In this document: positions 2,152 to 58,116 of the stretch, piece after piece
Layout of the letters: each line of letters begins with the position of its first letter
How positions within the stretch are numbered: the stretch's first letter is position 1
Position numbers and translations under genes: made by a program
Notes under the pieces: generated by a model
What the model was told of the DNA's origin: nothing
Databases searched by the model: none
What the model saw: only the letters and a program-made list of their open reading frames with translations
Assembly: GCA_951406725.2 (NCBI GenBank)
Contig: OX597831.1
Location: 9,424,001 to 9,488,000 of the forward strand
DNA length: 64,000 nucleotides
From: Octopus vulgaris
Lineage: Eukaryota
Direction of reading: 5' to 3'

Positions 2152-3051
2152 ATGGCCTTCTTTCTGTTTTCGTCCTATCAAATTCACTCACAAATGTTTG
2201 GTTGGCTCGAGGGTGCAGTAGAAGCCACTTACTCAAGTTGCAGCGCAGTAGGACTGAACCCAGAACCATGAGGTCGGGAAGCAAGCTTCTTACCAGCTAC
2301 CCACGCCCCTGTCGTGTATGTCAAACTCTGAAGTCAAACAGCATTGTTATTTTACACATAGTACATTTTGATTTGAACTGTAGTGCATTTCTCATCTTAT
2401 ATTTGGAAATATATACACCCAGTTAACGGGCATTTCGATGTTTTCAGTGAAATAAATTTTCATTCTTTGTGGTGTTTTTACCACTCAAACATCCATGATA
2501 ACAAAATCCAAGAATTTGAAAAGATCGAGAAAAACCATATATATATATTTTCTGATATTTTCTTTCGAGCTTTCAGATCGGAATTTTACAATACATTGTG
2601 AAATAGGAATTTATGCTATTTTGGTTTCTTATTAAATTATAATACAAACCTTACAGTTAGAATGTTCTTTAATACGTTATATGTATTTTCCTATTACATG
2701 CTATAACGTGCTATTATAATATTTTTATATAATATATTTTTCCATTACATTTTTTCACTTAAACGCAGGAAGACAATTCCTCGGAGTCAAGGAATAATAA
2801 TTCTTTATTCATCAAGAAACACGTTTACTATTAGTAAATCATATTTGTAGTATTTTCGGGGATGTTTGAAATATTAGTAGCTCTATTCCAAATTTTACGG
2901 ATTGGCATTGGCTGAAAAACTTATTTCGCTAAAGATATACAAAGCTTTTGTAATTTGAATTTCGTTCATTGGACTTTAAGAAAGGTAGTTTTATACTGAA
3001 ATATCAGAATACATTGTCAAAAAATGTATATTATCATATACATAGTTTTAT

Positions 3052-3652
3052 AAGGCGGCGAGCTGGCAGAAACGTTAGCACGTCGGACGAAATGCACACC
3101 GGTATTTAGTCTGCCGCTACGTTCTGAGTTCAAATTCCGCCGAGGTCGACTTTGCCTTTCATCCTTTCAGGGTCGATTAAATAAGTACCAGTTACGCACT
3201 GGAGTCGATATAATCGACTTAATCCATTTGTCTGTCCTTGTTTGTCTCCTCTGTGTTTAGCCCCTTGTGGGTAGTAAAGAAATAGGTGTTTCGCCTGCTG
3301 TTACGTTCTGAGTTCAAATTCCGCCGAGGTCGACTTTGCATTTCATCCTTTCAGGGTCGATTAAATAAGTACCAGTTACGCACTGGAGTCGATATAATCG
3401 ACTTAATCCATTTGTCTGTCCTTGTTTGTCCCCTCTGTGTTTAGCCCCTTGTGGGTAGTAAAGAAATAGGTGTTTCGCCTGCTGTTACGTTCTGAGTTCA
3501 AATTCCGCCGAGGTCGACTTTGCATTTCATCCTTTCAGGGTCGATAAATTAAGTACCAGGTACGCACTGAGGTCGATGTAATCGACTTAATCCGTTTGTC
3601 TGTCCCTATTTGTCCTCTCTATTTTTAGCCCCTTGTTTCCAATAAAGAAATA
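3052..3652 (+). mobile_element. tRNA-derived SINE family A, one head plus three tandem 184-bp bodies
   Basis: A-box-like AGCTGGCAGAAACGTTAGC, B box GAGTTCAAATTCC, conserved CCTTTCATCCTTTC-GGGTCGAT-AA core; units start at 3101, 3285 and 3469; TSD ATATACAT(A/C)GTTTTAT at 3036-3051 and 3653-3668. Confidence 0.9.
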
Positions 3653-44916: not shown

Positions 44917-45364
44917 ATCTCTTTCTCTCCACACGGCTACCATCAGTTACTAACATTGTGGTCACGGCAATAGCGCAAACCCTCTTCTAACAGTCACTGC
45001 CAAAATGGTTCTCGTCGGTCCCTCCTCCGCCCTCCCCTCCTCTCCTCTTGCTTTTTCCCCTTCCTACCCTCCTCCTCTTCCTTCGATTAGTCTTCGAATC
45101 TTCTCTCTTCCTTCTCCTCTACACAACCGCGCCCACTTTATGCAACCTTTGCTTACTCCTCCCAAATCTCCACCAACATCTCTTCCACCTCCAACGGCCC
45201 AGCGGTTCCACTATTACTACCACAACCACCACCATCACCTCTACTACTTCTACTACTACTACTACTACTACTACTACAACAACAACCACTGCTGCTGCTG
45301 CTACTACCATCACTGTAATCACAGTCACGACTAGTCTCACACTCGCTGAAATCGCCATCATCAT

Positions 45365-46045
45365 AGATATTGTCGCCACCATCGACACCACCACCACCAT
45401 CGACATCGTTCCCACCATCGACATCGTCATCACCATCGACATCGCCATCACCATCGACACCACCACCATCGACATCGTCACTACCATCGACATCGCTACC
45501 ACCATCGACACCACCACCACCATCACCATCGACAGCACCACCACCATCGACACCACCACCATCGACATCGTCACTACCATCGACATCGCTACCACCATCG
45601 ACACCACCACCACCATCGACATCGTCTCTACCATCGACATCGCTACCACGATCGACATCGCCACCACCATCGACATCGCTATCACCATCGACAACACCAC
45701 CACCATCGACATCGCCACCACCATCGACATCGCTATCACCATCGAAAACACCACCACCATCGACACCACCACCACCATCGACATCGCTACCACCATCGAC
45801 ACCACCACCACGATCGACATCGCCACCACCATCGACATCGCTATCACCATCGACAACACCACCATCGACATGGTTACCACCATCGACATCTCTATCACCA
45901 TCGACACCACCACCAACATCGACATCGCCACCACCATCGACATCGTCACTACCATCGACATCGCTATCACCATCGACAACACCACCATCGACATGATTAC
46001 CACCATCGACACCACCACCAACATCGACATCGCCACCACCATCGG
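45365..46045. repeat. Complex GC-rich minisatellite built from ACCATCGAC + (ATCGCC/ATCGCT/ACCACC/AACACC) modules
   Basis: ACCATCGAC recurs every 15-21 bp (always multiples of 3) over ~680 bp. Confidence 0.92.
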
Positions 46046-46305: not shown

Positions 46306-46984
46306 GGAGATGCGAACTGGCAGAAACGTTAGCACGCCGGGCGAAATGCTTAGCGGTATTTCGTCTGCGTTGAGCTGACGGTGAGCTGGCGGTGAGCTGG
46401 CAGAAACGTTAGCACGTCGGCCGAAATGCTTAGTGGTATTTCATCTGCGTTACGTTGTGAGTTCAAATTCCGCCGAGGTCGACTTTGCCTTTCATCCTTT
46501 CGGGGTCGATAAATTAAGTACCAGTTATGCACTGGGGTCGATGTAATCGACTTAATACCTATGTCTGTCCTTGTTTGTCCCCTCTGTGTTTAGCCCCTTG
46601 TGGGTAATAAAGAAATAGGTATTTCGTCTGCGTTACGTTGTGAGTTCAAATTCCGCCGAGGTCGACTTTGCCTTTCATCCTTTCGGGGTCGATAAATTAA
46701 GTACCAGTTATGCACTGGGGTCGATGTAATCGACTTAATACCTATGTCTGTCCTTGTTTGTCCCCTCTGTGTTTAGCCCCTTGTGGGTAATAAAGAAATA
46801 GGTATTTCGTCTGCGTTACGTTGTGAGTTCAAATTCCGCCAAGGTCGACTTTGCCTTTCATCCTTTCGGGGGTCGATAAATTAAGTACCAGTTACGCACT
46901 GGGGTCGATGTAATCGACTTAATACCTATGTCTGTCCTTGTTTGTCCCCTCTGTGTTTAGCCACTTGTGGGTAATAAAGAAATA
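46306..46984 (+). mobile_element. SINE family A with stuttered head and three tandem 183-184-bp bodies
   Basis: Units start at 46435, 46618 and 46801; TSD GGTATTATC(A/G)TCTCAGTT at 46288-46305 and 46985-47002. Confidence 0.92.
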
Positions 46985-47415
46985 GGTATTATCGTCTCAG
47001 TTCGAATAATTGAGTAAAATACAAATCATCAGCCGAGGTAAGATTTGAACTCAGGAACACTGCAATGAATGGCGTGGAGAAATTGGAGTAAAAGGCTAAA
47101 TGCTGAAGTTGTTGATGTTTAGTTTAAAATCTGCCTTTATCGAATTATCGAAAATACCTGCGATCAAATGATCAGTTGTAAATGGTTTTGCTTTTTGTTC
47201 TCACGCGACCTTCTCCAACCATACGTCATCTCTATGAATCTAGATATGTGCAACTTTCGTTAATGGATGGACAAAGAGCTGAAAATCATCATCTAATTAT
47301 TACAAGGGATCTCGCCTCTTCCAAGAACAAGCAACAATCAATACAACATTTAACAAGAAATCCAATCCATCATCTCACCTTATCCACATCTTCATAATGA
47401 ATAGAACTAAATTAG

Positions 47416-51537: not shown

Positions 51538-51961
51538 CTATTTCTTTACTATCCAAAAGGGCCTAAACACAGAGGGGACAAACAAGGACAGACAAACGGA
51601 TTAAATCGATTACATCGACCCCAGTGCGTAACTGCTACTTAATTTATCGACCCCGAAAGGATAAAAGGCAAAGTCGAACTCGGCGGAATTTGAACTCAGA
51701 ACGTAGCGTCAGACAAAATACCTATTTCTATTTCTTTATTACCCACAAGGGGCTAAACACAGAGGGGACAAACAAGGACAGACATAGGTATTAAGTCGAT
51801 TGCACCGACCCCAGTGCGTAACTAGTACTTATTTAATCGACCCCGAAAGGATGAAAGGCAAAGTCGAACTCGGCGGAATTTGATCTCAGAACGTAACGTC
51901 AGCCGAAATACGGCGACGCATTTCGCCCGGCGTGCTAACGTTTCTGCCAGCTCGCCACCTT
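51538..51961 (-). mobile_element. SINE family A dimer (head plus two bodies)
   Basis: Junction AAATA|CCTATTTC near 51720; flanking duplication GAAGTTAGAAATAC at 51524-51537 and 51969-51982. Confidence 0.92.
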
Positions 51962-56181: not shown

Positions 56182-56234
<53 letters not shown>

Positions 56235-56243
56235 TATATTTAC

Positions 56244-56307
<64 letters not shown>

Positions 56308-56596
56308 GAAATATTAAAATTACTAAGTCTCTCTAAAAGAGAACAGCGGCAGCGTTCCCGGAAAATAATAGTTATCGCCATACTAATATGGCATTCTTTT
56401 TCTTATTTTTATAAGAATGCCATATTAGTATGGCGATAACTATTATTTTCCGGGAACGCTGCCGCTGTTCTCTTTTAGAGAGACTTAGTATTTTAATATT
56501 TCTATTATTGAAAACAAGTGGATGTATTCCACCGAAACTAGGTAAATAAAACCATCGAACAGAGATTGTCGGAAGCGACACCTACTGACTGGCTAC

Positions 56597-56638
56597 GATG
56601 CATTGAAAAGGGGCAATACCCCGAAACGCGTCTGTAGC
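56597..56638 (+). ncRNA. Type I hammerhead ribozyme, U3-A8 core (unit 1)
   Basis: GATGCA-TTGAAAA-GGGG(CAATA)CCCC-GAAA-CGCG-TC^TGTAGC; cut after 56632; one A-G mismatch in stem I. Confidence 0.82.
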
Positions 56639-56958
56639 TGCCGGTCAAGTAGTGTGGAGCGACTGATCTCCCTTGTTCGAAGGTTATATGGATACAGTTT
56701 GTGTATCAAATAGCTAACTTAAGGCGATGGCCTCATGGAGCTAATAAGCGGACAGCTTTTTTCTTATTTTTATAAGAATGCCATATTAGTATGGCGATAA
56801 CTATTATTTTCCGGGAACGCTGCCGCTGTTCTCTTTTAGAGAGACTTAGTAATTTTAATATTTCTATTATTGAAAACAAGTGGATGTATTCCACCGAAAC
56901 TAGGTAAATAAAACCATCGAACAGAGATTGTCGGAAGCGACACCTACTGACTGGCTAC

Positions 56959-57000
56959 GATGCATTGAAAAGGGGCAATACCCCGAAACGCGTCTGTAGC
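56959..57000 (+). ncRNA. Type I hammerhead ribozyme, U3-A8 core (unit 2)
   Basis: Identical to unit 1; cut after 56994. Confidence 0.82.
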
Positions 57001-57320
57001 TGCCGGTCAAGTAGTGTGGAGCGACTGACCTCCCTTGTTCGAAGGTTATATGGATACAGTTTGTGTATCAAATAGCTAACTTAAGGCGATGGCCTCATGG
57101 AGCTAATAAGCGGACAGCTTTTTTCTTATTTTTATAAGAATGCCATATTAGTATGGCGATAACTATTATTTTCCGGGAACGCTGCCGCTGTTCTCTTTTA
57201 GAGAGACTTAGTAATTTTAATATTTCTATTATTGAAAACAAGTGGATGTATTCCACCGAAGCTAGGTAAATAAAACCTTTGAACAGAGATTGTCGGAAGC
57301 GACACCTACTGACTGGCTAC

Positions 57321-57362
57321 GCTGCATTGAAAAGGGGCAATACCCCGAAACGCGTCTGTAGC
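57321..57362 (+). ncRNA. Type I hammerhead ribozyme, U3-A8 core (unit 3, fully paired stem I)
   Basis: GCTGCA-TTGAAAA-GGGG(CAATA)CCCC-GAAA-CGCG-TC^TGTAGC; cut after 57356. Confidence 0.87.
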
Positions 57363-58116
57363 TGCCGGTCAAGTAGTGTGGAGCGACTGACCTCCCTTGT
57401 TCGAAGGTTATATGGATACAGTTTGTGTATCAAATAGCTAACTTAAGGCGATGGCCTCATGGAGCTAATAAGCGGACAGCTTTTTTCTTATTTTTATAAG
57501 AATGCCATATTAGTATGGCGATAACTATTATTTTATATATATATATATATTTGTATGTATGTATATATATGTACGTATGTATGCAAATGTGTCTGTGAGC
57601 GTGTGTGTTTACTGTATATTATTGAAACATAAAACTTAACTAAATAGAAAATTCCTCACCATTGAAGACTTTTGATATTTGAAATGATATTATTTAAAGC
57701 TATAAAAAGGTGCAATGAGAGAGGCGAGATGAAGAAATGATAAATTGTTTGGCAGGTAGATAAAGGTGCATGTTCTCAAACACAGAAGAAATTGAAAGAT
57801 AAAGCATTAAAAACATAAAAAAAAATTTATAAAACTATGAATATATCTTTCGTGAATATTTGTGAGGGGTTTTGGAGCAATTCGGATGCGTGGACACGTT
57901 GGAGGTAGTTTTTCAATGTCATCTCTAACTATTTCAGAAAAAAGCACCTTCAAAATTGAGGTGATATCAAACAACGTCATTTCAAATAAATATATATATT
58001 CTTCAATATTCTACATCTTCTTCTTAATAATATCACTATTATTATTATCATTATTATTATTATTATTAATATTATTATTATTATTATCATTATTATTATT
58101 ATCATTATAATTATTA

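Follow-up and report, generated by a model that had tools for sequence, protein, structure and literature searches.

A tandem repeat in the window (the whole 64,000-nucleotide stretch of Octopus vulgaris DNA analysed here) probably represents a hammerhead-bearing non-LTR retrozyme, which would be cut from multimers and copied in trans into (TA)n by a Hydra-type Penelope-like element. Directly observed are a complete hammerhead fold, a fixed U3-A8 core pair, compensatory changes in the stems, young and dispersed copies, insertions into (TA)n with two fixed ends and an inverted arm, an intact element of Hydra type whose ends follow the same pattern, and one locus in which repeat and element are fused.

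The tandem array and its hammerhead

The array consists of 3.1 units of 362 bp that are ~99% identical, such that the three units count as one observation and not as three independent ones. Unit 1 carries a one-base deletion, and no open frame of ≥150 aa was present across the array. The tandem arm is accompanied by a short inverted arm, and the whole is flanked by TA-rich microsatellites (Table 1) in a 2.8-Gb, microsatellite-rich host genome. Folded as a circle, the 362-nt monomer is predicted to reach -124 kcal/mol (z about -8.5 against 100 shuffles; minus strand, -5.9). Elsewhere in the window, tandem arrays with a 183-190-bp unit occur in 2-3 copies each at 3111-3636, 46435-46997 and 51538-51911, apparently as one dispersed repeat, and an 18-bp tandem repeat of ~39 copies at 45351-46044 contains long open low-complexity frames on both strands.

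The sequence TTGAAAAGGGG starts at positions 56603, 56965 and 57327 of the window, with TTGAAAA followed by GGGG at each of the three, confirming the first-pass annotation, which had read TTGAAAA ahead of GGGG/CCCC in all three units. In unit 3, 57321-57362 is a complete type I hammerhead spanning stem I to stem I', in the order stem I GCTGCA, core TTGAAAA, stem II GGGG-CAATA-CCCC, GAA, stem III AC-GC-GT, C17 and stem I' TGTAGC, with three stems around the core and both ends of the motif in stem I. The core nucleotides U4, G5, A6 and A9, the G12, A13 and A14 stretch, the A15.1-U16.1 pair and H17 are present both in the window and family-wide. The literal C3 and G8 are replaced by U3 and A8, which retain a Watson-Crick pair, and the annotation was right that positions 3 and 8 pair in the active hammerhead and that the swap is tolerated, U3-A8 being active according to the main text of an earlier study (PMC3088659). 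All of the subfamilies retain a loop inside stem I and a loop 2 of 5-6 nt ending in A, between which a tertiary contact may form. By sequence and folding the motif is a type I hammerhead in which the core pair is the already published U3-A8, and self-cutting is predicted from the fold.

Among the three window units, an intact ribozyme fold is predicted for unit 3 only. Units 1 and 2 have an A in place of a C at 56598 and 56960, respectively, and in the folding predictions stem I has a pairing probability of 0.0 in these units versus 0.94-1.0 in unit 3, with the hammerhead fold lying ~6.6 kcal/mol above the best fold versus 1.1 kcal/mol in unit 3. Because the commonest form in the family has a C at this position, the A is likely private decay of units 1 and 2. 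For units 2-3 together, folding as a double hammerhead costs 2 kcal/mol relative to the best fold, the defect of unit 2 included. The insertion is probably decaying, with one of its three ribozymes still intact.

Table 1. Features of the array, its hammerheads and its flanks in the window, and the loci of two older hammerhead families of the same genome.
Feature	Position or loci	Strand	Basis
Type I hammerhead, unit 3, fold predicted intact; stem I 57321-57326 with 57357-57362	57321..57362	+	sequence, folding, covariation
Core U3 U4 G5 A6 A7 A8 A9 with U3-A8 pair; A, C or T at position 7 depending on the subfamily	57327..57333	+	sequence, family pattern searches
Stem II GGGG/CCCC, loop CAATA; subfamilies C and D have A-U as pair 10.1-11.1	57334..57346	+	covariation alignment
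G12 A13 A14, palindromic stem III ACGCGT and C17; predicted cut after 57356	57347..57356	+	sequence, folding, pattern searches
Distal stem I, GGC 57315-57317 with GCC 57364-57366 across the internal loop; GAC/GTC in other subfamilies	57315..57366	+	covariation alignment
Hammerhead, unit 2, identical core; stem I mismatch at 56960, predicted misfolded	56959..57000	+	sequence, folding
Hammerhead, unit 1, identical core; stem I mismatch at 56598, predicted misfolded	56597..56638	+	sequence, folding
Tandem arm, 3.1 units; runs into (TA)n at unit position 178	56397..57534	+	repeat detection, locus comparison
Inverted arm (97 bp), unit positions 142-238, ending in (TA)n	56302..56398	-	sequence, locus comparison
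(TA)n microsatellite, left target flank	56185..56304	.	repeat detection
TA-rich microsatellite, right target flank	57535..57573	.	repeat detection
Monomer from cut to cut, 362 nt, 41% G+C; strong self-pairing predicted for the circle (z about -8.5)	56995..57356	+	folding
Family E loci	L033, L038, L039, L046, L052, L054, L066, L103, L105, L114
Family F loci	L032, L041, L091, L093, L102, L109, L113, L115

The core pair and selection across the family

A DNA search of the octopus genome with the unit returned at least 187 matches (40 of 1030 candidates scored), and those among the scored candidates are mostly 98-99% alike and lie on more than 20 contigs. The copies occur as dispersed short arrays, as in non-LTR retrozymes, and share with these a non-coding tandem unit of 170-400 bp with G+C <45% and one type I hammerhead per unit (here 362 bp and 41%), as well as a monomer that is predicted to be highly self-paired. 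A looser core pattern combined with the stem III of the window had 1822 matches in the genome versus 55 for a reversed control. Within the 1822, a pyrimidine at position 3 with G8 was found in 29 matches and a non-U at position 3 with A8 in 39, and several of these 68 matches belong to other families or to chance. To avoid selection on the core, a flank pattern that leaves the seven core positions free was also used, and had 1483 matches versus none for its control, with TTGANAA kept in 1450 of the 1483.

The subfamilies are ~85% alike and differ at core position 7, which is A, C or T. No C3-G8 member of the family was present among the 29 Y3-G8 matches, two of which are single U3-G8 copies, and the mismatched 3-8 forms are scattered single copies (the two U3-G8 and a handful of C3-A8 or A3-A8). 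In the genome pattern search there were no matches in the family context with a pyrimidine at position 8, nor with a G3-C8 or A3-U8 swap. Judged from these genomic copies, U3-A8 is the fixed ancestral state in every subfamily and dates to one ancient event. With the pair fixed and no C3-G8 member in the family, the swap alone is weak evidence of selection, and the first-pass annotation, in which the double change was taken as strong evidence of selection for catalysis, overstated the case. In contigs from four sequencing runs, with four other organism labels, the only substitution listed inside 57327-57333 is at position 7, suggesting that the U3-A8 core is common to related organisms.

The annotation had also held that the swap makes the family invisible to CUGANGA-based searches. 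An exact search does miss the element, but the novelty of this was overstated, as a U3-A8 descriptor was already in use in 2014, with ~1,300 Schistosoma mansoni matches given in the main text of that study (Cervera and de la Pena 2014, PMC4209133). Rfam hammerhead models had no match to the window element at either gathering or loose thresholds. As a control, the same models also missed three of three natural C3-G8 copies of the older families and both of the U3-G8 copies of the window family, such that the miss is not attributable to U3-A8 alone and the test is insensitive here. In this genome, U3-A8 matches with the stem III of the window outnumber C3-G8 matches about a hundredfold, and surveys requiring CUGANGA would for this reason undercount retrozymes.

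Two older families, E (10 loci) and F (8 loci), are 60-80% alike and separate from the window family. The aligned copies of family E include five U3-A8, two C3-G8, one U3-G8 and one C3-A8, with one locus lacking an alignable core, and those of family F include six U3-A8, one C3-G8 and one U3-G8. Though the copies are decayed, a switch between C3-G8 and U3-A8 is visible within both, and family E has compensatory changes in stem I. Comparison gave no support for homology of the two families to the window family, the similarity being confined to the hammerhead itself, a likeness that the search patterns forced. About 240 bases upstream of one family E hammerhead lies the decayed beginning of a Penelope-type ORF (L052:965-1252), which has 38% identity to the young element described below. 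Canonical CTGANGA hammerhead folds with a long stem II adjoin unrelated insertions at L003:1200, L024:3175 (-) and L075:2376 (-). By sequence and predicted fold, the genome contains many hammerhead families.

In a covariation alignment of 13 copies from five subfamily groups, 97.6% of the pairing cells pair, and both-sided changes occur in four of 22 pairs (stem I, stem II, the distal stem I and the extension contribute one apiece), though these represent few events inherited by many copies. The hammerhead structure scores above all six slid controls, and its covariation score was reached by none of 500 shuffles, while a count of four such pairs was reached by 165 of the 500. Approximately 25% of 302 columns differ among the subfamily majorities versus none of the 13 fixed core columns (rough P 0.02, a value biased in that patterns containing the core were used to find some of the subfamilies). 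Position 7 and loop 2 vary around unpaired core positions that do not, which is the pattern that catalysis demands.

In one subfamily the stem III palindrome ACGCGT has become ACATGT (88 among the first 100 of 220 matches), and all of the ACATGT matches among those listed have a TTGATAA core. The change amounts to two CpG-type transitions in one event. Non-palindromic single changes in stem III are scattered (12 of those 100 matches, with 27 matches for the other change). The replacement of one palindrome by another fits the dimer route that has been published for short palindromic stems III (main text of PMC4209133). Better evidence for selection on the ribozyme comes from the surroundings of the U3-A8 pair, namely the free position 7, the compensatory changes in stems I and II and the palindrome change, and not from the swap itself.

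Insertion layout and the candidate mover

The 30 best loci represent 24 distinct insertions, and 19 of the 24 carry an inverted arm. In 18 of these 19, an end at unit positions 174-179 is paired with an end at 233-238, and most of the insertion ends run directly into (TA)n. The insertions display partial tandems, an inverted 5'-truncated arm, an optional tail and an AT-rich target. The first three features are those of the layout published for Penelope, in which the tail has been traced to two internal reverse transcription start sites. The copies continue across the cut site, with scattered 5' ends and no pile-up there, so that reverse transcription likely proceeded on a circle or an uncut multimer as opposed to a cut linear monomer.

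A young Penelope-like family in the same genome has copies that are 98-100% alike (40 of 708 candidates scored), with an intact ORF of 775 aa and (TA)n ends. Seven of the 10 copies examined have two fixed ends in (TA)n-type repeats. The ORF possesses YRDD, DKT, CxxC and CxH motifs and a GIY-YIG-like stretch at its end, and some members of the protein clusters nearest to it carry GIY-YIG and HTH_animal families. A Pfam search of the full 775-aa ORF returned no family, an ORF fragment matched RVT_1 at E 0.001 (failing the cut-off), and a PDB sequence search with the full ORF was uninformative. The DKT, the C-terminal CxxC and CxH, the unit of <3 kb and the (TA)n target are those of the Hydra clade. 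As the CxCX5C linker is absent and RWL stands in place of RWK, the element is termed Hydra-type and is not assigned to that clade.

At one locus (L028:1329-2500; G000:C8 near 78.12 Mb), a three-part chimera is composed of a pLTR piece, an RT piece and 1.5 retrozyme units ending in (TA)n. The 475-base RT piece is joined in sense to the repeat with two bases of microhomology and no intervening (TA)n, and from this arrangement the chimera is likely the product of template switches within one insertion. The pLTR of the young element has no similarity to the 362-bp unit, and its hammerhead has the core CCGAAGA (C3-G8 kept, C at position 4), a long branched stem II, a palindromic stem III and a GTA cut triplet. 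This hammerhead is present at L083:5822-5905 and 2959-3040 (G000:C1 near 75.01 Mb) and at sister loci, with nearly all copies alike. A derivation of the 362-bp unit from this pLTR was rejected on the lack of pLTR similarity and the different hammerhead, and the young element is therefore a candidate mover in trans and not a parent.

In the proposed mechanism, the repeat would be transcribed as a multimer and cleaved after C17 into monomers, probably aided by dimerisation through two palindromic stems III, and the monomers would be circularised by a host ligase. Reverse transcription would begin at two internal starts (unit positions ~175 and ~238) on a circular or uncut multimeric template, with the young Hydra-type element supplying the enzyme and inserting the repeat in (TA)n. 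The U3-A8 pair would be an old and near-neutral exchange of a required pair, retained, we propose, because mismatched forms do not amplify. A narrower account, in which a whole retrozyme lineage with a canonically shaped U3-A8 hammerhead cuts as a dimer, has retained its stem III palindrome across a double change and is copied in trans by one intact Hydra-type element, with the chimeric locus a template switch between both RNAs, is offered tentatively, at just under an even chance.

The assignment of the mover rests on one chimeric locus among the 24 insertions, the sequence shared by repeat and element is limited to a short CTATT(T)AT end motif, and further Penelope-type RT fragments occur near family copies (L055 and L129). 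It is thus conceivable, though unlikely, that the retrozyme was moved by some other retroelement (another Penelope clade or a LINE) and that the fused locus arose from a chance insertion alongside or from repair. Against this, the junction at the fused locus is in sense, with microhomology and without target repeat, and the repeat and the Hydra-type element are equally young and have the (TA)n target and the two-end layout in common. A still less probable reading, that the whole is an ordinary satellite with a chance hammerhead-like motif, would account for the tandem units and the lack of an Rfam match. It is very improbable given that the short arrays are dispersed on more than 20 contigs, that the fold is complete with compensatory changes and that the control patterns for the looser core and the flanks were at or near zero.

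In the Anolis system, the sole one for Penelope that has been tested in vitro, mutation of the hammerhead left insertion normal and none of the RNA-seq reads had an end at the cut site, and minimal hammerheads linked to Penelope have been published as cleaving poorly in vitro. Taken with the read-through of the cut site, the 5' ends that do not pile up there and the predicted misfolding of two of the three window units, these observations leave some room for a slow or inactive relic, with an uncut multimer copied by a Penelope-type enzyme and selection acting on RNA structure or protein binding. Such a relic is improbable, however, as the unpaired core stays constant amid a variable position 7 and loop 2, a circular template predicts the read-through equally, and similar invertebrate retrozymes cleave and circularise (main text of PMC7229834). 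The reading as a hammerhead-bearing retrozyme, copied in trans by the Hydra-type element, is preferred to each of these.

If the narrower account is true, an enzyme-substrate pair is named for reconstituting retrozyme transposition. The mover of animal retrozymes has so far been argued from co-occurrence and pLTR likeness, and a young element with a shared target, a shared end layout and a fused locus makes the question of the mover testable in vitro.

Relation to known hammerheads, retrozymes and Penelope-like elements

The in vitro activity of the U3-A8 pair is reportedly credited to Przybilski and Hammann in 2007. A natural covariation from C3-G8 to U3-A8 has been described with several examples, for which in vitro activity is stated (main text of Perreault et al. 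2011, PMC3088659). The variants there are few, compared with well over a thousand motifs in the window family. The Penelope-linked Cercyon hammerheads of Schistosoma mansoni resemble the window family in having U3-A8, a type I topology, an animal genome and a Penelope link, but as described in the main text (PMC4209133) they are minimal, with a long helix II and a short helix I, heterogeneous and mostly single. The window family, unlike Cercyon, has a canonical 6-bp helix I, a 4-bp helix II, homogeneous tandem non-coding units and U3-A8 as the sole state.

No description of the 362-bp family was found in the main texts covered, which came mostly from outside the subscription journals; the supplements of PMC7229834 and 10.64898/2026.07.22.740005 may list such repeats. 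As characterised in the main text of Craig et al. 2021 (PMC8557442), the Hydra clade and the young element have in common a length of <3 kb, a single ORF, DKT, CxxC and CxH at the end and insertion into (TA)n, along with partial tandems with inverted copies and a pLTR hammerhead. Compared by description with that account, the young element differs in having no CxCX5C linker, RWL for RWK and a C at position 4 of its hammerhead.

The closest likeness is to the metazoan non-LTR retrozymes, whose units are 170-400 nt with G+C <45% in the main texts that describe them (Cervera and de la Pena 2020, PMC7229834; Li et al. 2026, 10.64898/2026.07.22.740005). Non-coding tandem units, one type I hammerhead per unit, a short palindromic stem III and a self-paired monomer are common to these retrozymes and the window family, and the mussel units in those texts, at 350-390 bp, bracket the 362 bp found here. 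The window family adds the U3-A8 core, which the passages covered from both studies leave unmentioned for retrozymes, a candidate Hydra-type mover and a fused locus. Retrozymes are known as linear and circular RNA, a form that the window family would share. With the U3-A8 core already published, the window family would represent a further non-LTR retrozyme, with cleavage and expression predicted.
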